Source of the DNA: a virus
DNA: 38,333 bases
Strand: one strand, 5' to 3'
IMG/VR virus record: IMGVR_UViG_3300045988_061988
Span: 1-38,333 of that record
Of the stretch, positions 4,972-18,582 are shown piece by piece (the first letter of the stretch is position 1; every line of letters begins with the position of its first letter). The notes under the pieces are model-generated. The model made no database searches and was not told the origin of the DNA. It was given only the letters and a program-made list of their open reading frames with translations. Both the position numbers and the translations under genes were made by a program.

Positions 4972-5032
4972 GTTTCAAATAGAAACAAAAACTTACAAAA
5001 AGTATTGACATATTATTATAATATGGTAATAT
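4972..5032 (+). promoter_or_regulatory. Early promoter cassette 4: dyad GTTTCAAATAGAAAC, -35 TTGACA, 16-nt spacer, TGg-TAATAT
   Basis: Dyad at 4972-4986, TTGACA at 5005-5010, TAATAT at 5027-5032. Confidence 0.7.
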
Positions 5033-5062
5033 ATGGATGTAAAGAAAAGGAGATAAAAAAAT

Positions 5063-5659
5063 ATGAAAACAAGTAAAATTAGAGAACAATTATCTTATAG
5101 ACAATATAGAACTTATCATTATGTTGAAGAAATGCCTTCAAAAGAAAAATGGATGGTTGAACATGTGTCAGGTAGTTACGAAATTGAATCGTTAAGAAAG
5201 CCGATTGCATTTGAAGAAGTCGGGAAACCGAACTATGATGATATAGAATGGTATGACAAATTCGGAGTAAAATCATCAAATGTTGATTATACTTATGATC
5301 CAGATGATTATAAGTATTACAAAGTGACTTATGAAATTATCAATATTGATGATGAATACAATGATATGATTGAATCTTTTGAGGATTATGAATATGTTTA
5401 TACAGATAAGTATGTTGAGTATGATGTTTATAAATTCGAGCAAGACATCGCAGAAATGGCTGTTGACATCAAACATGTTTGGAGTTTTGATGATTATGAA
5501 GAATACTATGGCGACTGTTATCCTGATGAAGTAGAAAAAATTAAAACATCAATTGAAGCGGACAGTTTAAACCGCGAATTAAAAGCTGAAGAATACAGAG
5601 ATTATTTAGCTGATATTAGAGAGGTTTTTGATAGCTATGCTAGAAGCTATAAAGAATAA
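5063..5659 (+). CDS. Highly acidic Asp/Glu/Tyr-rich protein (198 aa); DNA-mimic-like composition
   Basis: RBS aaaggagat. Long D/E/Y-rich tracts (DYTYDPDDYKYY..., DDEYNDMIESFEDYEYVY...). Confidence 0.6.
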   Translation: MKTSKIREQLSYRQYRTYHYVEEMPSKEKWMVEHVSGSYEIESLRKPIAFEEVGKPNYDDIEWYDKFGVKSSNVDYTYDPDDYKYYKVTYEIINIDDEYNDMIESFEDYEYVYTDKYVEYDVYKFEQDIAEMAVDIKHVWSFDDYEEYYGDCYPDEVEKIKTSIEADSLNRELKAEEYRDYLADIREVFDSYARSYKE

Positions 5660-5681
5660 ATAAAATGGGAAGGCAAAAAAA

Positions 5682-5888
5682 ATGGAATATAACAAAGAAA
5701 ATTACAAAGGAAGAAGAATCAGGTTGTATCCAAATGATACATACATGAAAAAAGGAATTATCACAAATGTGGATGATTTAGGATTTACAATATTGATCAC
5801 AGAAGCTGATGAGCGGTCAGTCTACAGAGTAGGCAATGCTTGTTTCTTCAATCATGCAACAAATCTCACATTCTTATTTCTAGATTAG
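5682..5888 (+). CDS. Hypothetical protein (68 aa)
   Basis: ORF with an upstream gggaagg RBS, in a tightly packed operon. Confidence 0.5.
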   Translation: MEYNKENYKGRRIRLYPNDTYMKKGIITNVDDLGFTILITEADERSVYRVGNACFFNHATNLTFLFLD

Positions 5889-5906
5889 CGAAGGGGGTAC
5901 TAGCGT

Positions 5907-6146
5907 ATGTGGATTAGAAGCCAGCACGGAAAGTTTTTTACAGATTGCGACTATTTCGAAGTTGAAAGATTTCATGGACAATATGGTGTGATTACTTTAA
6001 ATAATAGAAGTGACATTAGTGTTGCCTTGGGTATATATTCCAGTGAAAAAAAAGCTTTAAAGGTATTAGATGAAATTCAAAAGCGAACAGAATATATATA
6101 CCCTAAAGCATTCCAAATGCCACAAGATGAGGAGGTAGAAGTATGA
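5907..6146 (+). CDS. Hypothetical protein (79 aa)
   Basis: RBS gaaggggg precedes the ATG. Confidence 0.55.
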   Translation: MWIRSQHGKFFTDCDYFEVERFHGQYGVITLNNRSDISVALGIYSSEKKALKVLDEIQKRTEYIYPKAFQMPQDEEVEV

Positions 6147-6439
6147 AACTAATAGAATTACTTCCATTGATTGTATGTAATACAGTAAACATTTACGAAA
6201 AAAGAAAATATAAACCATCTAGGTTTATCTTATCAATTAATCCCAAAACGAATAAAGGATGTATTTCAGATGATTTATTAGACAGAGAAATTTATTCAAT
6301 ATCAGTAGCTTATGGTGGTAGATTTATCATTTACGTTTGCAATAAGAAAGACGATGAAGAATTAGTTAAAAAAGCGGCTTCAATTGGATTAATTGAAAAT
6401 GTTAACAATGATAATTCAAATGAGGAGGATGATTTTTAA
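6143..6439 (+). CDS. Hypothetical protein (98 aa)
   Basis: ATGA start/stop overlap with the upstream ORF. RBS gaggagg. Confidence 0.55.
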   Translation: MKLIELLPLIVCNTVNIYEKRKYKPSRFILSINPKTNKGCISDDLLDREIYSISVAYGGRFIIYVCNKKDDEELVKKAASIGLIENVNNDNSNEEDDF

Positions 6440-6816
6440 TGAAAGAGTTTGTTCAAATATCACTAGAAACATATAATGAGTTAAAGTCTAATAACGAGAA
6501 TTTAAAAAGAATGTTAAAAAAGGAACAAGCATCACATAAAGGAGATGTTGTGCGAGCCAAAGAAGAAATAAATGATTTGGTCGAAAAAATAGATCAGTAT
6601 AAGCAATACATTCTAGAACGTAATTGTAAATTGGCAAACACTGTGACCTATTCACTAGAGCAATATTTGGATGTAGATTCATGGACCTATGGAATGTATT
6701 ACAAAGATGAATTATTAAGCCTAGGAATCACAAAACAAGAAATGGATGAATTTATAGTAGATAAATATGAGAAATATGTAAAAGAGAAAGAAGAAGAAGA
6801 TGAAGATGATGATTAA
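6439..6816 (+). CDS. Hypothetical coiled-coil protein with an acidic tail
   Basis: TAATG overlap, RBS gaggagg, C-terminus EEEDEDDD. Confidence 0.55.
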   Translation: MKEFVQISLETYNELKSNNENLKRMLKKEQASHKGDVVRAKEEINDLVEKIDQYKQYILERNCKLANTVTYSLEQYLDVDSWTYGMYYKDELLSLGITKQEMDEFIVDKYEKYVKEKEEEDEDDD

Positions 6817-7150
6817 ATTTTGTCCTGACTTAACTTCAAAAGAAGATGTGCCAATCACCATTGGCACAGTAACATTTACAGGACCAGTACTCCATAAATG
6901 CTTACAAAATAAATGTGTAGCGTATAAGTTTGGCAAGTGTTTAAAATACAATAACTATACGGAATATGGAGATAAATTTGAGCCAAAAGAAGTAATTGAA
7001 CATAATGGATGTATGGGATGTGTATACGAAGATTTTGAAGAGTTTGAAGAACCTTGTGCATATTGTAAAGGAACATATAAATACAATACTATGGCATATT
7101 TAAAAGCAAAAGATTGTTACGTGCGTAAAGTTGATAAAAGAAAGGAATGA
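6800..7150 (+). CDS. Cys-rich hypothetical protein (possible zinc-binding)
   Basis: Cys pairs CMGC and CAYC plus further Cys residues. The start could be 6800, 6806 or 6809. Confidence 0.5.
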   Translation: MKMMIKFCPDLTSKEDVPITIGTVTFTGPVLHKCLQNKCVAYKFGKCLKYNNYTEYGDKFEPKEVIEHNGCMGCVYEDFEEFEEPCAYCKGTYKYNTMAYLKAKDCYVRKVDKRKE

Positions 7151-7155
7151 TTTAA

Positions 7156-7452
7156 ATGGCTAAATTAACACAAGCACAGAAAGATGCGTATATAAAAGAG
7201 TTAGAAGAAAAGCTGGAAGAAGCTGATAAAATTCAGAATGATCAGTTGAACATTCTGAATATCAATCAGAAGAAAAAAAAGAAACATAAGAAAATCACAC
7301 AGAGAACAGCCCAAGCATGGTTACTAGTTGCGTTGGTGATCACTCTTCTATTGTCAATTATGAATATTTGCATGTTAAGTATGTACATGGATATGTTTGA
7401 ACAAGTTGGGGGATATCAATACGAAACATTCAGAGAGAATAAAGGAGAATGA
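7156..7452 (+). CDS. Hypothetical membrane-anchored protein (coiled coil, Lys-rich tract, TM helix)
   Basis: KKKKKHKK followed by the hydrophobic segment AWLLVALVITLLLSIMNICMLSM. Confidence 0.55.
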   Translation: MAKLTQAQKDAYIKELEEKLEEADKIQNDQLNILNINQKKKKKHKKITQRTAQAWLLVALVITLLLSIMNICMLSMYMDMFEQVGGYQYETFRENKGE

Positions 7453-7715
7453 AAATGATTAAGTTAAAAAACGGTTATGAAATTGAATCAGACGGAAAAA
7501 GCTTCACGTTGTTTAAATATGTAATTCAAGAAAGAAAAGATGGGAGTATAACGGAAGCCAAGAAACAGATTTCCTTTCACTCTACATTATCAAGTGCGTT
7601 ACAAGGCTATTCTAATTGCGTGATGGCAGATTTAGTTTCTAACGTATATTTAGACTTGAAACAAGTTAAAGAAGCTATTGACGATTTAAAAAGGGAGATA
7701 AGGACATATGAATAA
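7449..7715 (+). CDS. Hypothetical protein (88 aa)
   Basis: ATGA overlap with the upstream ORF. RBS aaaggaga. Confidence 0.55.
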   Translation: MKMIKLKNGYEIESDGKSFTLFKYVIQERKDGSITEAKKQISFHSTLSSALQGYSNCVMADLVSNVYLDLKQVKEAIDDLKREIRTYE

Positions 7716-8064
7716 ATATCAAGAAGCAATGAACTATTTATGGAATGCATATGATGAAAATAAAATATATGGCATTGCAAGTAGAGGACATCTAGAAACA
7801 TTACAGGAGTTAGTTGATAAAGCAGATTCATTTGAGTGGATTCCTGTTTCTGAAAGACTACCTGAACCACCAATGGAAAACCCAGTACTCGATTACAAAC
7901 CATTAGAAGTTTATTTAGTATCAGTAAGTGATGAAGGCTATCCAATCAGAGCGTTTTGGGATGGAAAAAACTTTGGTATAGGAATGTTTAAATTGGATGT
8001 CAAAGCTTGGATGCCACTGCCAAAGCCATATAAGGAGAAAGAAAATGAAAATGACATTAGATGA
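7708..8064 (+). CDS. DUF551-like phage protein
   Basis: The EWIPVSERLPEP motif is typical of the DUF551 domain. Start overlaps the upstream stop. Confidence 0.5.
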   Translation: MNKYQEAMNYLWNAYDENKIYGIASRGHLETLQELVDKADSFEWIPVSERLPEPPMENPVLDYKPLEVYLVSVSDEGYPIRAFWDGKNFGIGMFKLDVKAWMPLPKPYKEKENENDIR

Positions 8065-8554
8065 AGCGATTGTTCATGCGAAAGAATTATCTGAAAATCA
8101 ATCAGTGTGTGTAGACTGTAGAGAAGAACATAAGCAACTTGCAGCGTGGCTGGATGAATTGAAACAGTATAAAGAAGAAAAGCCAGAAATAAAGCAAGAA
8201 ACTAATTACGAACATTACAAGGATGAAATCATAGAAAATTGTGGTTTTACTTTTGCACTAGTCGGCGGAAAGCCTCATAAATGCGCTTGTGTTAATTGTA
8301 ATGATTGTGGATTCAGTACAGGACATGGATGTACCGAAAAGATTAAAGAATGGTTAAAGAAACCGCACGAAAAGCCAGCATCAGTATACAAATTAACTAA
8401 ATTTGAAAAAGAATTATTACAATGCTATCCAGATATATACAGTTTTAAAGTATTTAATTCTTTAAATGGGATGAAGGAAAAAGGATATTTTAAAGGAATT
8501 GATGATAATGAAATAATTGGAGAAATTCTAGCAAATTGTGAGGTAATCAAATAA
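8045..8554 (+). CDS. Cys-rich hypothetical protein
   Basis: ATG 8045 after the RBS aaggagaaag. Cys clusters are CVDC and CACVNCNDCGFSTGHGC. Confidence 0.55.
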   Translation: MKMTLDEAIVHAKELSENQSVCVDCREEHKQLAAWLDELKQYKEEKPEIKQETNYEHYKDEIIENCGFTFALVGGKPHKCACVNCNDCGFSTGHGCTEKIKEWLKKPHEKPASVYKLTKFEKELLQCYPDIYSFKVFNSLNGMKEKGYFKGIDDNEIIGEILANCEVIK

Positions 8555-8787
8555 TGCTTAAAGCTAGATTGTTGTGCTTAACTGATAAGTATGAAGATGA
8601 TTTAATCAGTAGTACTGGTAAACACAAAGAAGATTATATCGGTCAAGTTGGTAATATTGTGCATCAGCAAAATATCTGTGTACTTGTTGGCACAAATAAA
8701 TATTTATACGACATCGAATTTAATGATGGCGCAAGATTTTGTGTAGAAAGAGAACAAATTGAATTCGTGGAGGGAAAAAATGATTGA
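8554..8787 (+). CDS. Hypothetical protein (77 aa)
   Basis: TAATG overlap with the upstream ORF. RBS gaggtaa. Confidence 0.5.
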   Translation: MLKARLLCLTDKYEDDLISSTGKHKEDYIGQVGNIVHQQNICVLVGTNKYLYDIEFNDGARFCVEREQIEFVEGKND

Positions 8788-9034
8788 TATTATTTGCGGG
8801 TTTATATATGGAAGTGGTGCAACACTTCTTATATATAGCCTAATGGTAGGAAAAAGGATTCAAGAAGAACAAGAAAAAGCTACAAAATGTATCTTCAAGT
8901 ATGAAGGATACAGAAGAAGAATCAGAACGCTTGAATATCAGAAGCATGAACTAGAAAAGAAACTTGAATCAATTGAAAGAGAGGAAAAAAATGGCGAAAC
9001 TTGCAAAAATGAAATACAGAACTGTTGGCGGTGA
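8780..9034 (+). CDS. Small membrane protein (N-terminal TM plus coiled coil)
   Basis: RBS ggaggga precedes ATG 8780. The hydrophobic segment is IICGFIYGSGATLLIYSLMV. Confidence 0.5.
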   Translation: MIDIICGFIYGSGATLLIYSLMVGKRIQEEQEKATKCIFKYEGYRRRIRTLEYQKHELEKKLESIEREEKNGETCKNEIQNCWR

Positions 9035-9634: not shown

Positions 9635-9850
9635 ATGGGGAAAAAAATGGTATTTTCTAATAAAACATATGACACTCTGAAGTGGGTTGCACTTGTTGGA
9701 ACGAACGCATTTTCAGCGTTAATTATCACGCTCGGCAAAATCTGGGGATGGGATAATGCAGAAGCGATTGCAGGAACTATTTCGGCAGTCGGAACTTGCA
9801 TTGGTGCATGCTTACAAATTAGTTCGGCGAATTATAAAAAGGTGGAATAA
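9635..9850 (+). CDS. Holin, SPP1/XhlB family
   Basis: KTYDTLKWVALVGTNAFSALIITLGKIWGW...AIAGTISAVGTCIGACLQIS matches the two-TM SPP1-type holin signature. An alternative start is at 9647. Confidence 0.8.
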   Translation: MGKKMVFSNKTYDTLKWVALVGTNAFSALIITLGKIWGWDNAEAIAGTISAVGTCIGACLQISSANYKKVE

Positions 9851-10198
9851 ATGACTCCTGAAGCAAGTGTAAGCATTGCATTACTTATTTCCTTGACATC
9901 ACTGGCATGTACGTTAATCAACACCTTTGCAGGTGGCAAAAAACGTCAGGAAGAACAGGCAGAGCGAGAAAAGAATCGTCAAATGGACATCGAAAAGAAT
10001 TTTGTAAAAATCAACGTAAAGCTTGATGAATTCTATGATACATCAAAGAAAATGATGGCAGATAACGGCGAAAAGACTGAGCAGCTGAAAAAGGTATCAG
10101 AGCAACTAATTCTTGTTACGGAACGTGTAAATACGTTGTTTAAATACAAGGATGATCATGAGCAAAGAATAAAAGGACTAGAGGACAAAATAAAATAA
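9851..10198 (+). CDS. XhlA-like membrane protein (holin-associated)
   Basis: N-terminal TM (VSIALLISLTSLACTLINTF) followed by a coiled coil. Its position between holin and endolysin mirrors PBSX xhlA/xhlB/xlyA. Confidence 0.55.
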   Translation: MTPEASVSIALLISLTSLACTLINTFAGGKKRQEEQAEREKNRQMDIEKNFVKINVKLDEFYDTSKKMMADNGEKTEQLKKVSEQLILVTERVNTLFKYKDDHEQRIKGLEDKIK

Positions 10199-10213
10199 AA
10201 GGAGGAATAAAGA

Positions 10214-11245
10214 ATGTACGGTATTGATATTTCAGAACACAATGGCAATATTAATTTAGAGCCATATAAAGGACAATTTGTCATTATTAGAGTTGGATAT
10301 GGTCATTTTCAATTAGACGAAAAATTTGAAAGAAACGTTAACGAGTGCAAAAGGCTAGGCATTCCGTTTGGGGTTTATCATTATTCATATGCATTGAATG
10401 AGGCAGAAGCAGAAGCAGAAGCAAGAGGAGTTCTTAATGCAATCGCAAAGTATAAGAACGATATCAGAGTTGGTGTATGGTTTGATATGGAAGACGCAGA
10501 CGGTTATAAGAGAAATCACGGCTTCAAGTTCTCAAATGCAACCATTGCTCCAATCTGCTACAAGTTCTGCAAAATGATTGAAGACGCAGGATATTATGCA
10601 GGCATTTACGCTTCTAGCTCATGGCTTCAATATGTAAATGGTTTAAATGACAGATTCGACAAATGGGTGGCTAATTGGGGAATGAATGATGGAACACAGC
10701 ACACAAACACTTCTCAATATGGAACAATTCAGCAATACACTTCTAAGCCATTAGACAAGAATGTAATGTATGCAGACCTTTCAAGATATTCAAGAGGTAA
10801 CACAACAGAACCTGTCAGAAAGAGTAACGAGCAGATTGCAGACGAAGTAATTTCAGGAGCTTGGGGAAATGGTGAAGATCGCAAGAACAGACTTACACAG
10901 GCAGGATATGACTACAATGTGATTCAGGACATTGTGAACAAGAAGGTTGCGCCTGTTAGAAAGTCAAATGATCAGATTGCAAGCGAGGTAATTGCTGGAC
11001 AGTGGGGAAATGGTCAGGACAGAGTGAACAGACTGAATGCAGCAGGATATGATGCTAATGCGATTCAGAATATCGTAAATGGCAAGATGGGTGCAACACA
11101 GGCACAGTATTACACTGTACAGAGTGGAGATACATTATCAGGCATTGCATCCAGATATGGAACAACATGGCAGAAGCTACAGGCTATGAATGGTATCAGT
11201 AATCCTAATCTAATCTATGCTGGACAGCGTATCAGAGTTAAGTAA
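10214..11245 (+). CDS. Endolysin: GH25 muramidase, two Cpl-7 (CW_7) repeats and a LysM domain
   Basis: N-terminus [10 protein letters not shown]...FVIIRVGYG (GH25). Duplicated RKSN(E/D)QIA(D/S)EVI(S/A)G(A/Q)WGNG(E/Q)DR(K/V)NRL..AGYD repeats. C-terminus [44 protein letters not shown] (LysM). Confidence 0.9.
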
Positions 11246-11625
11246 TGGCACAAGGCTATTATTCTTGTAGCAAGTGTGGGAAGATACATCCGAAAGGTTA
11301 TGTATGCCATGTACAAAAGAAGCACTACAAGTACAGCTATAAAGAGTCGAGGATGAGAAGCAAGGGTGCATGGACAGAGAAGAGCAAACAGATTAGAGAG
11401 GATGCTAACTATCTATGTGAAGTATGCAAGGACAAAGGTATATATAACTACCGTAATATAGGAGTGCATCACATAGAGAAGCTGAAGGATAAGCCAGAGC
11501 TATGGTTGGATGATGATAACCTTATATGCTTATGCAAAGACTGTCACAGGTTAGCTGATGCAGGAATGGTTGATAAAGAATATCTAAAGAAGTTAGCTAT
11601 GCAGAGAATCGACAGGTTGAAGTAA
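11245..11625 (+). CDS. HNH endonuclease (packaging-associated type)
   Basis: CSKCGK...CEVCKDKG...HHIEKL...NLICLCKDCH. Start overlaps the endolysin stop (TAATG). Confidence 0.85.
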   Translation: MAQGYYSCSKCGKIHPKGYVCHVQKKHYKYSYKESRMRSKGAWTEKSKQIREDANYLCEVCKDKGIYNYRNIGVHHIEKLKDKPELWLDDDNLICLCKDCHRLADAGMVDKEYLKKLAMQRIDRLK

Positions 11626-11714
11626 TCCCCCGTGGTAACAGGCATTGTCTGATGTGACACCAAGATGAAACGTCCATACAACTGATCACAAAAATTATAA
11701 AATACTAAGATTTT

Positions 11715-11744
11715 TTGGATAAACGGCCAAAATCACGCTATAAT
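11715..11744 (+). promoter_or_regulatory. Candidate promoter (TTGGAT, 18-nt spacer, TATAAT) in front of the AT-rich operon
   Basis: Hexamers at 11715-11720 and 11739-11744. Confidence 0.45.
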
Positions 11745-11795
11745 GTGAGTATAAGCCGTTTTTTGTTTCAAAAAGAATCAAAAACTAGCTTAATG

Positions 11796-11811
11796 TGTTC
11801 CACGTGGAACA
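11796..11811. promoter_or_regulatory. Perfect 16-bp palindrome TGTTCCACGTGGAACA (operator or RNA hairpin candidate)
   Basis: Read directly. It lies 29 nt upstream of the permease start codon, downstream of the candidate promoter. Confidence 0.6.
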
Positions 11812-11839
11812 TGAGCGGGCAATATAAGAAAGGTAGTGA

Positions 11840-12937
11840 ATGAAAATGGGAAATGAGAAACTAAGTTTTAAAAAAATAGGTGCTTCAAGTGCTGCAAGCT
11901 GGGCATGGGGAACATCTTTAATCATGGGACAACAAATAGCTCAAGAGAAAGGTATAATCGCTTGGGTCATATGGGCTGTTTGTAATACCTTAACGCTTGC
12001 ATTATTTGGATGGCTATATAACAATAAAAAAATTAGTCCAGAAACTTATAATAGAAAAGAAGTAAAAGTAATAGCATTAATAATTCAATTATTTAGCTTG
12101 TTAGTTCAGTTGAATTTTATAAATCAACAATTTTTAATTATTACAGGTAGTACAATTGCAGCATATTTGATAACAATAGCATTAGGATTTTTCTTTACTT
12201 TAATTGTTTACAAAAAAGGACTACCAACATCAGTTAAAACAGATGTATACCAATGGATCATGGCTATTGTATCAATTATAGCAGTTATATTAGTTGGAAT
12301 ATTTACAAAAGCCCCATTACAAGTATTTGCACCAACTAGCATGAGTGGTGTGTTATGGGGAATATGGTCTGGACTTATTTTGTTTGCTGGACCTATTGGA
12401 GATGTACAACATTGGCAAAGAGCAGAAGCAGATGAAAGTAAAAAAGGTTATTATTTAGGAGCATTTTTATTTGGACTTTATATGTTATTAATATTAGGAA
12501 TGGCTTTCTTTAAATTTACACTACCAATGCATATTATTTTATTAGTAGCAGTTCTTGGAGTAACTACATCGACTATAGATAGTATTGCAGTAGCACTTCA
12601 TGGAGTAGGGAATAAGAAAATAGGAACAGGACTTTCACTATTATTATGTATTGCATTTGGAGTATTTGTTAAAATGGGAATGCTTCAGTTATGGAGTTCA
12701 TTTGGAGTTATTAGATTTGCATTTGCAGTTGGTATTTTGTTATTACCGTTAGCATTAAAGAAAAAAACAAGTATAGTAATTCCAGTATCAGCAATAACGT
12801 TTGGAATAATGGTATTATTTGCTACTTTAGGACAAATAACAATTAATTCAATTGTTGGAGTTATAAGTTTTATAGTAGCAACAATAATACTTGGCTATGT
12901 ATCAGTAAAATCATTAGAAAGTAGGAAAATGAGATGA
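11840..12937 (+). CDS. Polytopic membrane protein (about 10-11 TM helices); permease, possibly sodium:solute-symporter-like
   Basis: Hydrophobic helices throughout. N-terminus IGASSAASWAWGTSLIMGQQIAQEKG and mid-protein GPIGDVQHWQRAEADESKKGYYLGAF resemble SSS-family TM1 and the (D)QxxxQR loop. Family call is tentative. Confidence 0.45.
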   Translation: MKMGNEKLSFKKIGASSAASWAWGTSLIMGQQIAQEKGIIAWVIWAVCNTLTLALFGWLYNNKKISPETYNRKEVKVIALIIQLFSLLVQLNFINQQFLIITGSTIAAYLITIALGFFFTLIVYKKGLPTSVKTDVYQWIMAIVSIIAVILVGIFTKAPLQVFAPTSMSGVLWGIWSGLILFAGPIGDVQHWQRAEADESKKGYYLGAFLFGLYMLLILGMAFFKFTLPMHIILLVAVLGVTTSTIDSIAVALHGVGNKKIGTGLSLLLCIAFGVFVKMGMLQLWSSFGVIRFAFAVGILLLPLALKKKTSIVIPVSAITFGIMVLFATLGQITINSIVGVISFIVATIILGYVSVKSLESRKMR

Positions 12938-13557
12938 AATTAGAAGTAGTAAAATTAAGTGATTTAAAACCATTGGAGAAGAATGTTAGAAAACATAATG
13001 ATAAACAAATTGATGAATTAATTAAAAGTGTAGAACAATTCGGACAAACTAGAGCAATGGTTATTGATGAATATAATAATATTTTAATTGGTAATGGTTT
13101 ATATTTTGCTTTAGTAAAAATGAATAGAGAAGAAGTTCAATGTTATAGAAAGACAGGACTATCAGAAACTGAAAAGAAAAAATTAATTTTAAGTGATAAT
13201 AAAATTTATGGCTTAGGTTCAGATGATTACGAAGAAATAAATAATTATATTCAAGAGATAACTGGAATGGGAGATTTTGAAATCGCTGGTTATGACAAGT
13301 TTATTTTGGAGCAAATGACTGCAACAGATGAACAAGTTGAAGAAGCAATAAAAAATTATGGTACTATAACAGATACTAAATTTATTCAAGAAGAACCAAA
13401 ACAAGAAACAAGTTATAAAGAACCAGAAATTAAAAATGAACCAGAAATTAAAAATGAACAAGTAACAATGGTAACGGAAACAAAAGTCGGCGCTGAAAAA
13501 AATGAGAAGAAATATATTATATGTCCTTCTTGTGGGGAGATGATCTATCTTGATTAA
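12934..13557 (+). CDS. ParB N-terminal-domain-like protein (degenerate catalytic box) with a tandem PEIKNE repeat and C-terminal CxxC
   Basis: VVKLSDLKPLEKNVRKH...QIDELIKSVEQFGQTRAMVIDEYNNILIGNGLYFAL is a ParBc-like layout, but GNGLY replaces the usual GxHR. C-terminus CPSCGEMIYLD. ATGA overlap with the permease. Confidence 0.6.
   Translation: MKLEVVKLSDLKPLEKNVRKHNDKQIDELIKSVEQFGQTRAMVIDEYNNILIGNGLYFALVKMNREEVQCYRKTGLSETEKKKLILSDNKIYGLGSDDYEEINNYIQEITGMGDFEIAGYDKFILEQMTATDEQVEEAIKNYGTITDTKFIQEEPKQETSYKEPEIKNEPEIKNEQVTMVTETKVGAEKNEKKYIICPSCGEMIYLD
13420..13455 (+). repeat. Perfect tandem duplication of an 18-bp unit (GAACCAGAAATTAAAAAT x2) inside the ParB-like gene
   Basis: Read directly. 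It encodes EPEIKN EPEIKN. Confidence 0.9.
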
Positions 13558-14644
13558 AAAACAATACTCAAACATTGATGTCGTAACAATGGCTAAGACA
13601 AGAATAAAAAATATATTTAAAACTGCTAGTAGAATTGAATTATCAGTAAGTGGTGGTAAAGATAGCATTTGCTTAAATGATTTAATATTTAAAATGTGTC
13701 AAAGTGGAGAAATAGACAAATCAAAATTAAAAGTTGATTTTATAGATGAAGAAGCAATATTTCCATGTATAGAAAAACAAGTTAAAAGCATGAGATTACA
13801 ATGGTTGAGTATTGGAGTACCTTTTAATTGGTGGTGTATTCAGGTAAAGCATTATAATTGCTTTAATCAATTAACAAATGATGAAAGTTTTATTTGTTGG
13901 GATGAAACTAAAAAAGATGTATGGATAAGACAAAAGCCAAAATTTGCAATTACAAATGATCCATTACTTGATGAAAGACATGACACCTATCAAAGTTTTA
14001 TGAATAAAAAAAATAAAAATTGTGTATCAGTAATTGGCGTTAGAGCAAGTGAAAGTATTCAAAGATTAACGAATTTAGCAAATAGAAAATTACAAGAAAA
14101 AATGTTTCCTATCTATGATTGGACCGATAAAGATGTATGGATGTATATAAGAGATAATAACTTAGAATTCCCAGATGCTTATAAATTTATGTATCAAGTA
14201 GGAGTTCCAATTAACAGATTAAGAATAAGTCAATTTTTTAGTATAGATACTGCTAGAAGTTTAACTCAGATGTGCGAATTTTATCCAGAACTATTTGATA
14301 AGATTTGTAAAAGAGAGCCAAATGCTTATATGGCAATGCTTTATTATGATACTGAATTATTTAGAAGACAAAAGAAAAATAAACAAGCAAAGAAAGATGA
14401 AGAAGTTGATTATAAGAATAAATTCTTTGAGATGTTAAAAGAAGAATGGAGATTTGATAATAAACCTATGCAGAGGGTAAAAAGACTAATTAATAGAATA
14501 TTAATTAAATATGGACCATTTTTAAATCAAAAACATTACAAAGAGTTATGTAATATAGTAATTGGTGGAGACCCCAAATTAAGAGCATTAAGAGCTTTAA
14601 TAATGGATTTAGATATTTATGTAAATAAGGAGAGTTACATATGA
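13550..14644 (+). CDS. PP-loop ATP pyrophosphatase of the PAPS-reductase family with a C-terminal extension (IbrA-like)
   Basis: PP-loop SVSGGKDS (nt 13643-13666), GVRASESIQR and PIYDWTDKDVWMYI motifs. A roughly 150-aa helical C-terminal region fits DUF3440-type proteins. The start is uncertain (TTG 13550 or ATG 13589). Confidence 0.75.
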   Translation: MIKKQYSNIDVVTMAKTRIKNIFKTASRIELSVSGGKDSICLNDLIFKMCQSGEIDKSKLKVDFIDEEAIFPCIEKQVKSMRLQWLSIGVPFNWWCIQVKHYNCFNQLTNDESFICWDETKKDVWIRQKPKFAITNDPLLDERHDTYQSFMNKKNKNCVSVIGVRASESIQRLTNLANRKLQEKMFPIYDWTDKDVWMYIRDNNLEFPDAYKFMYQVGVPINRLRISQFFSIDTARSLTQMCEFYPELFDKICKREPNAYMAMLYYDTELFRRQKKNKQAKKDEEVDYKNKFFEMLKEEWRFDNKPMQRVKRLINRILIKYGPFLNQKHYKELCNIVIGGDPKLRALRALIMDLDIYVNKESYI

Positions 14645-15189
14645 AAGAAAATGAAATAAAAAAATATGAAAATAAAAATATATTAGAACCTTTAGAAAAT
14701 GTTAAATTTGTTGATAGAGATTTATTAAAACCAAATAATTATAACCCAAATAAAGTATCAGAACAAAATCTTGAATTATTAGTTCAGTCTATATTAGTAA
14801 ATGGTTGGACTATGCCAATAGTTATAAGACCGGATTATACAATTATAGATGGTTTTCATAGATGGACTGTATCAGGTAGAGAACCATTGAAAACATTATT
14901 AAAAAATAAAGTTCCAGTTGTTATTGTAGATCATAAAGACCATGCAGAAGATGTCTATGGTACTATCACACATAATAGAGCAAGGGGAACTCATTTATTA
15001 GAACCAATGAAAGCAATAGTAAAAGAATTATTGGATGCAGGAAAAACAACAAAAGAAATATGTAAAGAATTAGGAATGAAACCAGAAGAAGTATTTAGAT
15101 TATCTGATTTCACAAGAGAAGATTTTTTAAGAATGATGATTAAGGACCAAAAGACTTATAATAAATCATATCAAGTAAAAAAATTTTAG
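14641..15189 (+). CDS. ParB/Srx-fold protein with a canonical DGxHR box (IbrB-like)
   Basis: LLKPNNYNPNKV...PIVIRPDYTIIDGFHRWTV...THNRARGTH, followed by an HTH-like KTTKEICKELGMKPEEVFRL. ATGA overlap with the upstream gene. Confidence 0.7.
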   Translation: MKENEIKKYENKNILEPLENVKFVDRDLLKPNNYNPNKVSEQNLELLVQSILVNGWTMPIVIRPDYTIIDGFHRWTVSGREPLKTLLKNKVPVVIVDHKDHAEDVYGTITHNRARGTHLLEPMKAIVKELLDAGKTTKEICKELGMKPEEVFRLSDFTREDFLRMMIKDQKTYNKSYQVKKF

Positions 15190-15200
15190 GAGGTGATAAT

Positions 15201-15572
15201 ATGGCGAAAATGACTTTAACCGAACAAGCACAAGAAATTTTAAGAATTGCAGAAGAAAGTGGAGTACAAAGTAATTATTTTTTTATAACCACTTTCAAAA
15301 GATATCAAATGCAATTAGTTATGTTATATGAATTAGAAAAATCTATAAAAGAGGATGGAATATTAGTTGAAAAAGAATATGTTAAAGGCAGAAAAAATTT
15401 ATATTCTAGTCCAGCAGTAAAAGATTATAATGCAACAACAGACAGTGCGAATAGAACAGTCGCAACTCTTATGAAGATTATTAAGAATTATAACGTAAGT
15501 GATACAACCGAGGATGCAGACCCGCTTATGAAGATCATTAATGGTGGTGAAGATGATGGCGGTGACGAGTAG
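15201..15572 (+). CDS. terS: Terminase small subunit, P27 family
   Basis: Strong RBS taggaggtga. ...KRYQMQLVMLYELEKSIKEDGILVEKEYVKGRKNLYSSPAVKDYNATTDSANRTVATLMKII is a typical P27/Terminase_4 pattern. Confidence 0.8.
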   Translation: MAKMTLTEQAQEILRIAEESGVQSNYFFITTFKRYQMQLVMLYELEKSIKEDGILVEKEYVKGRKNLYSSPAVKDYNATTDSANRTVATLMKIIKNYNVSDTTEDADPLMKIINGGEDDGGDE

Positions 15573-17244
15573 TAAGGCTTACGAATATTGCAAAAAATCT
15601 ATTAGAAAGAAAACCACTCCGAAGTACGTTAAGTTACAAATGAAAGCATGGATGAGGATTGCTGAAGGAAAAGACAGAAAGTATTTCATATCCGAAAAGA
15701 AAGTACAGCAGATTGAGAACATCCTGAAACTGTTGATTATGCCGAAAGGCCTCAAGGCCGGACAGTCTATGTATAAGTGCGCCACTGGTTATCAGTGGCT
15801 TATTTATATCGCAATGCTAGGCACGGTGTATCGGGAGAATCCGAAAAAACGCAGATACGAAACAGGTCTGTTGGAGATTTGCAGAAAGAATTTTAAGACG
15901 TACACGGTCGGAACGATTTTTATTATTTTGTTTTTGACAGAGCCAAAGTTCTCAAAATTCTTTTCAGTTGCACCAGATGGTTCTTTGTCGAAAGAAATCA
16001 AAGAAGCAATTTCAGATACAATCAAAAGCAGTCCGCTGATATATGAGTACAAAGGAACGAAGCGTTTCAAGCTGTTAAGGGACTACATCAAGTTTAAGCC
16101 AAACGAAAACACGTTAATTCCGTTGGCATATAGTAATAACCGTATGGACGGACGTATGCCGAATGCGTTCATCGCAGATGAGGTTGGAGCATTGCCAAAT
16201 AAATATCCTGTCGATGCAATGAGGTCAGGGCAGCTTAACGTCTTTAATAAACTTGGGTTCGTAATCAGTACAAAATATCCGACAATCGACAATCCATTCG
16301 AGGATGAGGTTGCATATGCCAAAAAGATTCTTGACGGCATTGAGAAAGACGAAACAGTATTTGCACTGTTGTATGAGCCTGACAAAACGTCTGATTGGGA
16401 AACAGACGATCTTATTCTGAAACAGGCAAATCCGTCGGCACTTGAAATACCTGAAATTTGGGATGATCTTATCAAGAAGCGTGCCAGAGCCATTGCTATT
16501 GAGAACGAGCGAGAGAACTTTGTTACAAAGCACTGCAATATCATTTATCAAGGTCAGGGAACAGAAACGTTTATTGATGTTAAGGATGTTCAGGCGTGCA
16601 AGGTTGCAGATATTGATTGGAACGGCAGAGTTGTATATTTAGGTGTTGACCTTTCAGAATCAAACGATAATACATCTGTTGCCATGGTTTCTGTAGATGA
16701 TGATGATAACATTCTTGCAGAAAGTTTTGCGTTTATTCCGGCAGACAGAATCACGGAGAAAACAGTCTCAGAGCGTGTAAACTATCAAGAACTATTGAAG
16801 AGTGGGAAGGTATTTGCATGCGGTGACAGAGTTATCTCATATGCGTTTGTTGAGCAATTAATCTTGAGCGTTGAAAGCCGTTATAACGTGCAAATTCAGG
16901 CGATTGGCTATGATAGGTGGAATGCATTAAGCACAGCGCAGAAATTGGCTAATGAGGGTTATAACACGGTTCAAATCAAGCAGTATTCAAGCGTGCTACA
17001 TTCTCCGACAAAGAGGATGAAAGAAGCAATCCTTACGCAGAAATTCAAATACACAGAAAATAAATTGCTAGAGATAAACTTTCAGAATGCAAAATGTGCA
17101 TACGATACAAACAAAAATATGTACGTGAGTAAGAAAAAGAGCAACGGAAAAGTTGATATGGTGGTATCACTTATCAATGCAATTTACCTTCTTGAGCAGG
17201 ATTATTTCCTGAATGAGGGTGACTTTACATTCCAGATGATTTAA
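15541..17244 (+). CDS. terL: Terminase large subunit (HK97/Terminase_1 type)
   Basis: Size, its position between terS and portal, and the pattern of conserved acidic motifs (FIADEVG, VYLGVDLS). The start is uncertain (15541, 15553 or 15556). Confidence 0.85.
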   Translation: MVVKMMAVTSSKAYEYCKKSIRKKTTPKYVKLQMKAWMRIAEGKDRKYFISEKKVQQIENILKLLIMPKGLKAGQSMYKCATGYQWLIYIAMLGTVYRENPKKRRYETGLLEICRKNFKTYTVGTIFIILFLTEPKFSKFFSVAPDGSLSKEIKEAISDTIKSSPLIYEYKGTKRFKLLRDYIKFKPNENTLIPLAYSNNRMDGRMPNAFIADEVGALPNKYPVDAMRSGQLNVFNKLGFVISTKYPTIDNPFEDEVAYAKKILDGIEKDETVFALLYEPDKTSDWETDDLILKQANPSALEIPEIWDDLIKKRARAIAIENERENFVTKHCNIIYQGQGTETFIDVKDVQACKVADIDWNGRVVYLGVDLSESNDNTSVAMVSVDDDDNILAESFAFIPADRITEKTVSERVNYQELLKSGKVFACGDRVISYAFVEQLILSVESRYNVQIQAIGYDRWNALSTAQKLANEGYNTVQIKQYSSVLHSPTKRMKEAILTQKFKYTENKLLEINFQNAKCAYDTNKNMYVSKKKSNGKVDMVVSLINAIYLLEQDYFLNEGDFTFQMI

Positions 17245-17325: not shown

Positions 17326-18582
17326 ATGGCACTATTCAGAAAAAGAATCAAGAATAAAATTAATCTTAACGATCAAAGTGTTCAGCTTGACGATGTGCTG
17401 TTATCGGCATTGCTCAACAATGAAAAGATTACGAGAGAGAAAGCATTGACTCTTCCCGCCATATCAGGTGCCGTGGATTTTATCAGCGGTTCAATTGCGT
17501 CAATGCCTGTTAAACTGTACAAGTACAAAGACGGCAAGGTTGAAGAAGTGCAGAAAGACAACCGTGTGCGAATGCTGAATGGCGATACTGGAAACACGCT
17601 TGACGGTTTCCAAACAAAAAAGGCCATGGTCGAGGATTATCTGCTTGGCAAGGGTGGATATTGTTACATCCAGAGAGACAGACAGAACAACGTAACGGCG
17701 TTGAAATATATTCAAGATATGAACGTTACTGTGTGGTCAAATTCCGACCCGATGAACCGTTTCGTACAGTTCTATGTTGGCACAAATAAAATATATCCGT
17801 GGAACATGGTAAAGCTGTTGAGAAATACCAAAGACGGAGCAAGTGGAAAGGGATTGACAGGAGAAATCTCGAAGGCCCTTGAAGTGGCATACAGCACATT
17901 AGTGTATCAGCTTGGATTAGTCAAGACAGGCGGTAACAAAAAAGGCTTCTTACAGGCAGAACGTAGAATTGGGCAAGAAGAAATCAATAAGCTGAAGGAA
18001 GCGTGGAAGCGGCTGTATACCAACAATACCGATAATGTAATGGTTTTGAATAACGGCATCAAGTTTCAGGAGTCGTCAAACAGTTCCGTTGAAATGCAGC
18101 TAAATGAGAGTAAGAAGACTTTGCAGGATGAAATAAATGGAGTATTCCATATTCACAGTGACTTCAATCTGACTTTCAAAGAAGCAATCTATCCAATTGT
18201 TAAAGCATTTGAGACAGCACTCAACAGCACGTTACTGTTAGAAAAAGAAAAGAAAAACTTCTTCTTTGAATTTGATACGAAAGAAATTGTGAAAGCAAGC
18301 ATCAAAGAAAGATTCGATGCTTACAAGGTTGCAAAAGACACAGGACTTATGACTATCAATGAGTTGCGCCGCATGGAAAATCTCAATTACATTGAGGGTA
18401 TGGACGTGATCAATGTTGGACTTGGAGCAGTTCTGTATGATATTGAAACCGGAACGTATTACACTCCAAACACCGGACAGGTGACAGGTGGAGATGAAGA
18501 AGAAGCGACTGATAAAGTGGAAGAAACTGAACAGGGGGCAGATGATGAATTACAAGTACCTGAAGAATCTGACGAAAAATAG
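17326..18582 (+). CDS. Portal protein, HK97 family
   Basis: Size and position between terL and the ClpP-type protease, plus an acidic C-terminal tail. Confidence 0.85.
   Translation: MALFRKRIKNKINLNDQSVQLDDVLLSALLNNEKITREKALTLPAISGAVDFISGSIASMPVKLYKYKDGKVEEVQKDNRVRMLNGDTGNTLDGFQTKKAMVEDYLLGKGGYCYIQRDRQNNVTALKYIQDMNVTVWSNSDPMNRFVQFYVGTNKIYPWNMVKLLRNTKDGASGKGLTGEISKALEVAYSTLVYQLGLVKTGGNKKGFLQAERRIGQEEINKLKEAWKRLYTNNTDNVMVLNNGIKFQESSNSSVEMQLNESKKTLQDEINGVFHIHSDFNLTFKEAIYPIVKAFETALNSTLLLEKEKKNFFFEFDTKEIVKASIKERFDAYKVAKDTGLMTINELRRMENLNYIEGMDVINVGLGAVLYDIETGTYYTPNTGQVTGGDEEEATDKVEETEQGADDELQVPEESDEK

Follow-up and report, generated by a model that had tools for sequence, protein, structure and literature searches.

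A transporter-linked PP-loop/ParB cassette at the head of phage packaging genes, a candidate DNA modification system

Closest described systems

Pairs of a PP-loop enzyme and a ParB-like protein occur in hundreds of phage genomes and among thousands of metagenomic proteins, but have no function assigned to them; virome annotations as a rule misname the genes 'PAPS reductases' of sulfur metabolism or 'partition proteins'. Here we describe such a pair as part of a four-gene cassette in the IMG/VR virus record IMGVR_UViG_3300045988_061988, whose whole 38,333-nt stretch is called the window and in which all listed genes lie on the + strand. The cassette is located between an HNH endonuclease gene and the putative small terminase gene (terS) and encodes a transporter (permease), two ParB-like proteins (ParB1 and ParB2) and a PAPS-reductase-family enzyme (PPloop). 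We tentatively propose that it serves a late, ParB-assisted and ATP-dependent modification of phage DNA for which a precursor is imported.

IbrA/IbrB, known from an island of E. coli ECOR-9 and from phages, resembles the cassette in consisting of an adjacent PAPS-reductase-family PP-loop enzyme and a small ParB-N protein, neither of which has known biochemistry. An earlier interpretation made from the DNA letters alone (the sequence-only reading) had equated PPloop and ParB2 with this architecture. The homology is real: PPloop is 26% identical to IbrA of Streptococcus phage CHPC877 (gp28-gp29 pair) over residues 10-277 (E 7e-24), an alignment that includes the H-x-x-C motif and the first ~60 residues of DUF3440, and ParB2 shares motifs with IbrB. 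The identity of the two systems does not follow, however. The DUF3440 domain (PF11922) was found in 0 of 35 members of the window clade at E <= 1, and the proteins of comparison loci L041 and L005 (L-numbers are labels of fetched comparison loci) and Phlyer gp4 were likewise negative, whereas IbrA of CHPC877 (1e-86) and of Lactobacillus phage AQ113 (3.5e-83) match strongly. By these sequence criteria the window PPloop clade is placed as a sister subfamily of IbrA rather than within it. PPloop has a different helical C-terminus with a GDPKxR motif, and its C116 is not common to IbrA. The cassette also differs by the additional ParB1, the symporter-like permease, often a second PP-loop enzyme (PP2) and its location before terS. 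By contrast, the true IbrA/IbrB pair (L127 3773-6762 in CHPC877; L128 in AQ113) is preceded by a gene for a 411-aa SNF2-family helicase and is found after the lysis genes and before cro, away from the terminase.

A second group of relatives acts on DNA, which is modified by the PAPS-reductase-family enzymes DndC, SspD and BrxP (PMC10853773, PMC12839542). The systems of DndB/DndC, SspD and BrxP resemble the cassette in combining a PP-loop ATP pyrophosphatase with a ParB-superfamily DGxHR protein, in the (here presumed) DNA target and possibly in conserved cysteines near the active-site region (PMC10853773, PMC12839542). Of the residues that could correspond to the three-cysteine [4Fe-4S] site and cysteine dyad of the DndC type, only H101, C104 and C116 of PPloop are conserved almost throughout. 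Unlike in the Dnd and Ssp systems, no DndA (cysteine desulfurase), DndD (SMC-like ATPase), DndE, SspB/SspC or restriction module was present among the conserved families flanking the cassette. No Dnd or Ssp system is known to include a transporter. Common to the PP-loop superfamily is the adenylation of an oxygen, from which AMP is then displaced by sulfur or nitrogen.

Small ParB proteins encoded beside a modifying enzyme are known from two further systems. In phages, DNA thymine dioxygenases are activated on double-stranded DNA by their cognate ParB homologs (5mYOX176/ParB176; PMC13229309), and DpdB is a ParB-like ATPase required for the insertion of preQ0 into DNA, where it assists DpdA (PMC12839542). 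For each ParB/PP-loop pair they provide the best functional analogy, a small ParB lying beside the enzyme as here. The catalytic partner is, however, a PP-loop enzyme in the cassette versus a dioxygenase or a tRNA-guanine transglycosylase in these systems, and ParB2 has a helix-turn-helix (HTH) whereas the 5mYOX-associated ParBs are without an obvious DNA-binding domain. Attachment of an amino acid to DNA is exemplified by CmoY, an asparagine-synthetase homolog and ATP-dependent AMP-forming ligase that puts glycine on DNA 5-carboxymethylcytosine, and ParBc genes co-occur with the CmoX/CmoY modification genes (PMC12783734). AMP-forming ligation of an amino acid to a base links CmoX/CmoY (Synechococcus phage S-B43) with TilS, which is among the top structural matches of PPloop. 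In contrast to CmoX/CmoY, the cassette has no carboxymethyltransferase or other 'handle' enzyme; CmoY is not of the PAPS-reductase type, and neither CmoX/CmoY nor TilS systems include a transporter. The window permease, in turn, shares the LeuT fold with the sodium:solute symporter (SSS) family (PutP, PanF, SiaT, CHT1), and its GDxxxWQR motif and TSTIDS-type polar helix are invariant among its relatives; no equivalog is assigned to it. An SSS transporter within a phage late operon is unusual.

The nearest counterpart of the four-gene cassette in a cultured phage is gp35-gp38 of Faecalibacterium phage FP_Taranis (NC_047914), which encode a transporter, a ParB-like protein, a PAPS reductase and a ParB-like protein in the same order, with a RinA-like activator gene upstream and terS and the large terminase gene (TerL) downstream; Pioen and the unannotated fecal phage contig MT836198 are relatives of Taranis. 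PPloop of Taranis is 37.5% identical to that of the window over 95% of its length, and the permeases are homologous (E 5e-11) with only 21% identity. Taranis differs in a permease without GDxxxWQR, in two small open reading frames (ORFs) between ParB2 and terS, and in a myovirus backbone with a different terminase. The paper describing Taranis does not discuss the transporter, PAPS reductase or ParB genes, and a full-text literature search yielded no paper on a transporter/PP-loop/ParB module or on the function of a phage IbrA/IbrB-like gene. The designation of the system as undescribed can nevertheless not be kept, given that its core is represented in PHROGs, that 'PAPS reductase-like' and 'ParB-like nuclease domain' are annotated in 223 phage records, and that the same layout is annotated in Taranis. 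Window positions 11200-15600 gave no megablast match in 50,697 phage records. Thus, PP-loop plus ParB modules of the IbrA/IbrB and DndB/DndC types are known already; new are the linked putative Na+/solute symporter, the second ParB, the optional PP2 and the position at the head of the packaging operon.

Gene organization and predicted proteins

The cassette and its neighbours in the window are arranged as follows.

10214-11245, + strand: endolysin (ORF listing)
11245-11625, + strand: HNH endonuclease, left cassette boundary (PF01844 E 2.8e-7; phrog_144 1.2e-19; G+C content (GC) 0.396)
11626-11839, + strand: non-coding cassette leader, 214 nt (promoter-like site; perfect 14-bp palindrome)
11840-12937, + strand: permease, 365 aa (LeuT fold by AlphaFold2 (AF2) and Foldseek)
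12934-13557, + strand: ParB1, 207 aa (phrog_620 E 2.7e-36)
13550-14644, + strand: PPloop, 364 aa, TTG start (PF01507 5e-10; phrog_2302 3.3e-79)
14641-15189, + strand: ParB2, 182 aa (PF02195 1.1e-7; phrog_2159 8.4e-70; TIGR00180 1.8e-9)
15201-15572, + strand: putative small terminase (terS), 123 aa, right boundary (position before TerL, overlap with TerL; phrog_13845, function not known, 1.3e-49)
15541-17244, + strand: TerL (Pfam)
17326-18582, + strand: portal (ORF listing)

Direct reading of the DNA confirmed four coupled ORFs between HNH and terS at the coordinates initially given. The permease and ParB1 genes are joined by an ATGA overlap at 12934, ParB1 and PPloop by an 8-nt TTGATTAA overlap at 13550, and PPloop and ParB2 by a further ATGA overlap at 14641. 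The TTG start of PPloop at 13550 is credible because the N-terminus MIKKxYS is conserved among aligned homologs. The ParB2 stop codon is followed by GGAGGTGA and then by the terS ATG at 15201, which leaves an 11-nt gap with a Shine-Dalgarno sequence. The terS protein of the window has no Pfam match, and its counterpart in L005 belongs to Terminase_4. Windowed GC also bore out the AT-richness of the insert: the cassette has a GC of 0.278 versus 0.382 in the rest of the window and forms its lowest-GC 3.35-kb block. The AT-rich block takes in terS too (GC 0.317), and positions 5000-9000 are moderately AT-rich as well. With genes for a serine integrase, Erf, an exonuclease, a replication initiator and a DnaC-like loader, the window derives from a temperate siphophage of the gut. 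Holin-like genes and the endolysin gene (window 9635-11245) precede the HNH and packaging genes rather than follow the tail genes, which is an uncommon siphophage order.

Profile searches with hidden Markov models, together with AF2 and Foldseek for the permease and PPloop, agreed with the motifs and fold families named in the sequence-only reading, including the PAPS-reductase-like nature of the 364-aa protein. The AF2 model of PPloop (predicted local distance difference test (pLDDT) 81.6) matched APS/PAPS reductase, TilS, GMP synthase, NcsA, LarE, CysD and FMN adenylyltransferase in Foldseek, in each case over the N-terminal ~220 aa only, while the helical C-terminal domain gave no Foldseek match. 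PF01507 was found in 35 of 35 PPloop family members tested, and conserved motifs comprise SGGKDS, DEEA, H101-x2-C104...C116-W-D, RISQFFSxDT, REPNAY and GDPKxR. Of 38 representatives, 36-37 have H101, C104 and C116; C73 is kept in 32 of them and C96 in 33. PPloop is assigned to the PAPS-reductase-family PP-loop ATP pyrophosphatases as an IbrA-related member. A search of its profile against solved-structure sequences returned matches at E > 0.05 only. Models of CysH, CysD and APS reductase scored at best 18-29 bits against cut-offs of 154-413, and ECGLH is present in neither PPloop nor PP2. With the DndC model TIGR03183 the window PPloop gave no match and its ortholog in L069 19.9 bits against a cut-off of 290. 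PP2, where present, is a second PAPS-reductase-like protein of ~270 aa (PF01507 E ~1e-9) with the motifs W-x-x-GKDS and GRRxxDGN and without a conserved cysteine.

ParB1 is a non-canonical ParB-N-like protein with the motifs NxRxH, GNGLY and KKKL..DN and a C-terminal, zinc-knuckle-like CPxCG tail. It matches the ParB domain of phage DNA-methyltransferase fusions (phrog_498 2.7e-25; PADLOC MTase_II 2.6e-12), and a search against solved-structure sequences gave nothing useful. The ParB-N-like character and the GNGLY box had been recognized correctly in the sequence-only reading. 'Degenerate', by contrast, is a misnomer: all four motifs are conserved at >=90% among 38 diverse representatives (G53 and G55 at >=90%), and we therefore rejected a decayed pseudo-ParB in view of these conserved variant motifs and of a ratio of nonsynonymous to synonymous substitution (dN/dS) of 0.24.

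ParB2 combines an IbrB-type ParB N-domain with an HTH and carries DGFHRW and HNRARGTH. Its PF02195 match lies above the family cut-off, and its profile matches ParB/Noc/Spo0J structures over residues 12-149, covering both the N-domain and the HTH (4umk 3e-6). It aligns with the annotated IbrB proteins of mycobacteriophage Phlyer (gp5) and Streptococcus phage CHPC877, with NPN, DGFHR and HNRA[RK]G kept. ParB2 is the most conserved part of the cassette, with 65-80% identity in distant loci where PPloop shows ~45% and the permease 23-28%. Among orthologs from L046-L125, whose hosts' GC spans 0.29-0.63, ~40% of positions are conserved at >=90%, which is unusual for a phage accessory protein and is not accounted for by any conserved DNA site. 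The 120 homologs listed of 7193 are all unnamed standalone proteins of nearly always ~175 aa, with no fusions among these listed matches. The GERRxRA box through which canonical partition ParBs bind CTP is missing from both proteins, GNGLY of ParB1 and DGFHRW of ParB2 being found at that position, and no ParA-like gene occurred among the conserved flanking families in an all-against-all clustering of ORFs.

The permease was modelled by AF2 with a pLDDT of 86.4 and a predicted template modelling score (pTM) of 0.84. Foldseek matched it to ApcT, CHT1, AdiC, LAT1, SiaT, Mhp1 and CodB (query TM-score (TMq) 0.5-0.66) and also to SGLT2, at E values of 1e-5 to 1e-3. It is accordingly modelled as a short, divergent SSS-related transporter of the sodium:solute-symporter type with a LeuT/APC fold. 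Profile searches with the window protein gave no Pfam (including PF00474), NCBIfam (including TIGR00813) or PHROG match and no match to solved-structure sequences, and tblastn found nothing in 50,697 phage records. The protein is nevertheless homologous (tblastn, 23-28% identity) to the 460-480-aa permeases of distant modules, relative to which it is ~100 residues shorter; the long permease of L069 matches PF00474 (E 1.9e-20) and TIGR00813 (1.1e-33), and the GDxxxWQR motif is common to the long and the window forms. Within the family (296 relatives detected, labelled only generically as 'hypothetical protein') the polar intramembrane elements GDVQHWQR, TSTIDS, N49, Q83, Q90, N92, D135 and H254 are invariant. 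Because of the confident LeuT fold, these invariant polar transmembrane residues and a dN/dS of 0.18, the transporter appears to be functional.

Distribution, position and recent history

Starting from the 2264 relatives in the PPloop family, 80 viral loci were retrieved, and their genes were located with queries from the window and from distant modules. Collapsing them at <=90% PPloop identity gave 43 clusters, and the 37 with at least 3.5 kb of upstream flank are the loci counted here. The association of the permease with the PP-loop and ParB genes clearly extends beyond the window, as the permease accompanies PPloop in 35 of the 37 loci and ParB1 and ParB2 in 36 each. An AT-rich insertion unique to the window phage was thus rejected, the cassette being found again in dozens of unrelated phages. 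The GC of cassette loci ranges from 0.29 to 0.63, hence the hosts must be very different. Apart from backbone-specific HTH activator and terS families, clustering of the flanking ORFs detected no sixth conserved component, and any other gene family was shared by 15 of the 37 representative loci at most. The cassette thus forms a self-contained unit that travels from one backbone to another. The four-gene order of the window recurs on other backbones in L041-L043. In L005-L007 the order is rearranged to PP2-ParB1-PPloop-ParB2-permease-terS with linkage kept. Distant PP-loop/ParB triads without a permease occur in Phlyer (gp1/gp4/gp5) and Riemerella phage PJN03, and permease homologs without the enzymes are found in L001, as a moron between tail-fibre and lysis genes, and on Clostridia chromosomes. 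One large clade of these modules can thus be described as a mobile cassette that, across phages whose hosts differ widely, is joined to a putative sodium-coupled importer and to the beginning of the packaging operon.

The window operon is the shorter of two forms. A PP2 gene lies between the permease and ParB1 genes in L010, L012, L016, L017, L018, L024, L027 and L036, and PP2 is present in 24 of the 37 loci. In the window, the permease ends in ...VSVKSL-ESRKMR, of which the last six codons and the ATGA overlap correspond to the 3' end of PP2. Since this end is fused in frame to the permease, the four-gene operon, which is indeed present as first noted, is a deletion derivative of a five-gene form, and the window lineage lost PP2 by an in-frame deletion. 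L013-type relatives underwent an independent PP2 deletion that left a 62-nt remnant. Given that PP2 is optional, the window retains the conserved core.

Wherever enough downstream sequence is available, packaging genes follow the cassette on its 3' side, and the coupling to packaging genes pointed out for the window thus holds in many backbones. At least four terminase types are involved: TerL_ATPase/TerL_nuclease (PF03354/PF20441) in the window, GpA in L069 and relatives, Terminase_3 in L057 and Terminase_6 in L103. In L117 a terS-like gene is followed by a divergent ~470-aa ATPase whose family also follows the cassette in L071, L079, L053 and L101. An exception is L076, where the cassette abuts an integrase gene. 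In 15 loci a ~195-aa protein with a sigma-70-region-4/SpoIIID-like HTH is encoded upstream, and its Taranis counterpart is annotated as a RinA-like activator. With an activator upstream and packaging genes downstream, the cassette occupies the first positions of the late operon; together with the gap of only 11 nt between ParB2 and terS in the window, this makes it likely that it is expressed late, probably along with the packaging genes. As a side observation, the TerL ORF of L009 (4113-5202, corresponding to ~15895 of the window, within TerL) is 931 aa long owing to a ~360-aa in-frame insertion with a LAGLIDADG-like motif (LLGVWLGDGT) and an HN end, which looks like an intein with a homing endonuclease.

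The intact cassette genes are under purifying selection that is more relaxed than that on essential genes: dN/dS is 0.18 for the permease, 0.24 for ParB1, 0.34 for PPloop and 0.10 for ParB2, versus 0.04 for TerL and 0.07 for portal. Measured against close relatives, synonymous divergence amounts to 0.13-0.15 in the cassette, 0.21 in terS, 0.49 in HNH, 0.65 in portal and 0.73 in TerL, i.e., 4-5x lower in the cassette than in TerL and portal and ~3x lower than in HNH. It follows that the cassette spread recently among diverged backbones, in agreement with its foreign composition; the AT-rich block, possibly with terS (11840-15572), was recently exchanged among them.

Close relatives also document losses. 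In window coordinates, L029 lacks 12011-13882, L030 lacks ~12057-14654 and L018 lacks 13662-14024, whereas L020 (a 30-kb contig) carries several internal deletions, with fragments of ParB1, PPloop and ParB2 remaining. L029 and L030, contigs of ~36-37 kb, are thereby without ParB1 and all or part of PPloop, and their packaging and structural module is complete. In L022 the permease gene is interrupted at window position 12039-12056 by a 1.2-kb insertion (L022 379-1584) flanked by an 18-bp target duplication; its reverse-strand gene specifies a 357-aa protein that has a CPxC...CxxC zinc ribbon and looks like an insertion sequence (IS)-type transposase. Given these natural deletions, the cassette is accessory and often lost.

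All natural deletion variants retain the leader, palindrome included, and the first ~57-72 permease codons. The leader contains a promoter-like TGGATA-17-TATAAT at 11716-11744 and, at 11797-11810, ~30 nt 5' of the permease start, the perfect 14-bp palindrome GTTCCACGTGGAAC (chance expectation 0.05), whose core keeps its position among close relatives and does not recur beyond them (20 locus records, including repeated fetches of the same contig). Because the leader and early permease region is kept by every deletion variant, ~11626-12050 may hold an essential cis element such as an operator, a late promoter or cos. Rfam searches of the window gave nothing at gathering thresholds and, within 11500-12000, chance-level matches only at E <= 10, hence no riboswitch. 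As a ParB site the palindrome GTTCCACGTGGAAC was rejected, as it is limited to close relatives and no non-coding k-mer or palindrome is common to the module family.

Candidate function and alternatives

From the observed gene content, folds, motifs, synteny, position, purifying selection and dispensability of the cassette we infer its target (DNA), chemistry, substrate and biological purpose as follows. Late in infection, the ParB-type proteins would bind the replicated, double-stranded DNA of the phage and bring in or activate PPloop, which would spend ATP on adenylating a DNA oxygen, either a base carbonyl or carboxyl or a backbone phosphate. A nucleophile would then displace AMP, giving rise to a covalent genome modification before packaging, and the symporter would supply this nucleophile or its precursor; a sulfur transfer resembling that of DndC/SspD would be an alternative chemistry. 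Genomes modified in this way would be shielded from host restriction or defence. We put this late modification of phage DNA at slightly under an even chance. DNA is favoured as target because ParB1 resembles methyltransferase-fused ParB domains, ParB2 has an N-domain plus HTH, an SNF2 helicase is encoded at true IbrA/IbrB loci, and the cassette is placed in the late operon. The tight linkage of the symporter, in turn, argues for an imported reactant. A phage importer beside nucleic-acid-type enzymes is unusual and suggests a chemistry that needs a precursor from the environment.

It is tempting to speculate on the nature of this precursor. Cellular homologs of the permease (61-67% identity) on Clostridia chromosomes adjoin prolyl-tRNA synthetase (ProRS)-like paralogs in three different contexts on three contigs of metagenome-assembled genomes (MAGs). 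Three tandem ProRS paralogs lie beside the permease homolog in L002 (1885-7104), and a divergent archaeal-type ProRS-like gene (458-459 aa) is directly adjacent in L039 (4477-9541) and L044 (7001-12543), with a bona fide leucyl-tRNA synthetase (LeuRS) gene nearby in both. These loci could represent islands for uptake and activation of an amino acid or analogue, or resistance islands. Since ProRS paralogs adjoin its closest cellular homologs, the substrate of the permease is possibly proline or a proline-like amino acid. In the most specific version of our proposal, a building block that neither phage nor host makes, e.g. proline or a proline-like amino acid, would be imported from the environment and attached by PPloop to ATP-adenylated DNA under guidance of the two ParBs, giving a covalent modification not known before; this version is doubtful, and we would give it about one chance in five.

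Several observations weigh against a precursor-dependent DNA modification. In close relatives the cassette is decaying and can be dispensed with, and selection is most relaxed on PPloop, the presumed catalyst. PPloop falls well short of the cut-off of every curated family, so that any reaction type proposed for it is conjectural. A comparison of palindromes and k-mers across modules revealed no conserved DNA site for ParB2, the top shared k-mers being codons of conserved peptides. We know of no modified base in cassette-bearing phages, including the cultured Taranis, PJN03 and mycobacteriophages. The proline clue is weak, as it consists of gene adjacency in three MAG contigs; Rfam detected no T-box in the six loci searched that carry cellular homologs of the permease, and the long permeases of the modules lie closer in score to PanF than to PutP. 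Furthermore, a transporter of 10-11 helices put to work late in the lytic cycle is awkward. Finally, ParB/Srx-fold proteins can be small-molecule kinases, and SerK, a serine kinase of the ParB fold, is a weak match of ParB2 (E 3.5e-5; PDB 5x0b E 0.11), so that a metabolic pathway is possible.

Two alternatives are improbable to the same degree. According to the first, the cassette regulates phage or prophage genes: the ParB and PP-loop proteins would switch on late genes, maybe through modification of the DNA, or of a regulator, close to the late promoter, while the transporter would serve to sense a signal or take it up. Such a role is suggested by the label 'co-activators of prophage gene expression' that IbrA/IbrB bear in databases and phage records, which goes back to E. 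coli ECOR-9, where eib prophage genes are activated. It also fits with the placement of the cassette where the late operon begins, after a RinA-like or sigma-r4-like activator gene and before terS, with the HTH of ParB2, and with the precedent of ParB-family DndB in transcription regulation. However, L029 and L030 keep a complete packaging and structural module without most of the cassette, implying that late gene organization is independent of it, and no DNA site is common to the modules. Moreover, a regulator would leave two ATP-pyrophosphatase-type enzymes and a symporter unexplained, and the window enzyme is not IbrA sensu stricto.

The second sees in the cassette a prophage-borne moron that benefits or defends the host, expressed in the lysogen and either modifying host DNA, acting against superinfecting phages through ParB-like nucleases or NTPases, or conferring a new uptake capacity. 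A foreign AT-rich composition, a promoter-like leader of its own, an operator-like palindrome, low synonymous divergence as a sign of recent horizontal spread, and residence in a temperate phage with a serine integrase are all compatible with this model. So are the lone permease homolog in the classic moron slot of L001 and the occurrence of PAPS-reductase-family enzymes in Dnd, Ssp and BREX-4 defence. Yet PADLOC returned weak generic matches only (BrxP 7e-7 over 58 residues; MTase_II via the ParB domain), flanking-ORF clustering found no conserved restriction or effector partner, and the site in the late operon, tight against terS, is unlike that of most prophage defence islands.

Somewhat less probable still is an auxiliary metabolic cassette in which an imported compound would be adenylated or reduced by the PAPS-reductase-like enzymes, with ParB/Srx-fold kinases (cf. 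SerK and sulfiredoxin) participating, and would provide more sulfur, cofactor or amino acid during infection. Phage PAPS reductases are usually interpreted as sulfur auxiliary metabolic genes (PMC12323421), a transporter is a natural fit, and the weak NCBIfam matches to CysD and CysH as well as the weak likeness of ParB2 to SerK point in the same direction. By contrast, the CysH, CysD and APS-reductase scores are 10-30x under the curated cut-offs, PP2 has no conserved cysteine, ECGLH is missing from both enzymes and there is no CysN partner. In addition, ParB2 with its HTH aligns over its full length to DNA-binding ParB/Noc, and ParB1 groups with methyltransferase ParB domains. A packaging accessory, with ParB-like proteins that would prepare the cos/pac region for the terminase by marking or processing it, is very unlikely: the site upstream of packaging genes is conserved across at least four terminase families and the Phlyer triad lies at the extreme left end beside the terminase, but ParB1 and all or part of PPloop are missing in L029 and L030, only fragments are left in L020, the cassette shifts between backbones with unrelated terminases and is hence not terminase-specific, and neither transporter nor PP-loop chemistry would be explained.

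The cassette is tractable because Taranis and Pioen of Faecalibacterium are cultured, natural deletion variants may serve as controls, and a minimal set of genes, the conserved residues for mutation and a class of candidate substrates are at hand. If the most specific version, with an imported building block attached to DNA, is true, the cassette would represent the first transporter-dependent DNA hypermodification of phages and would provide a biochemistry for the IbrA/IbrB superfamily. Evasion of immunity by these phages would then be tied to nutrient availability in the gut.

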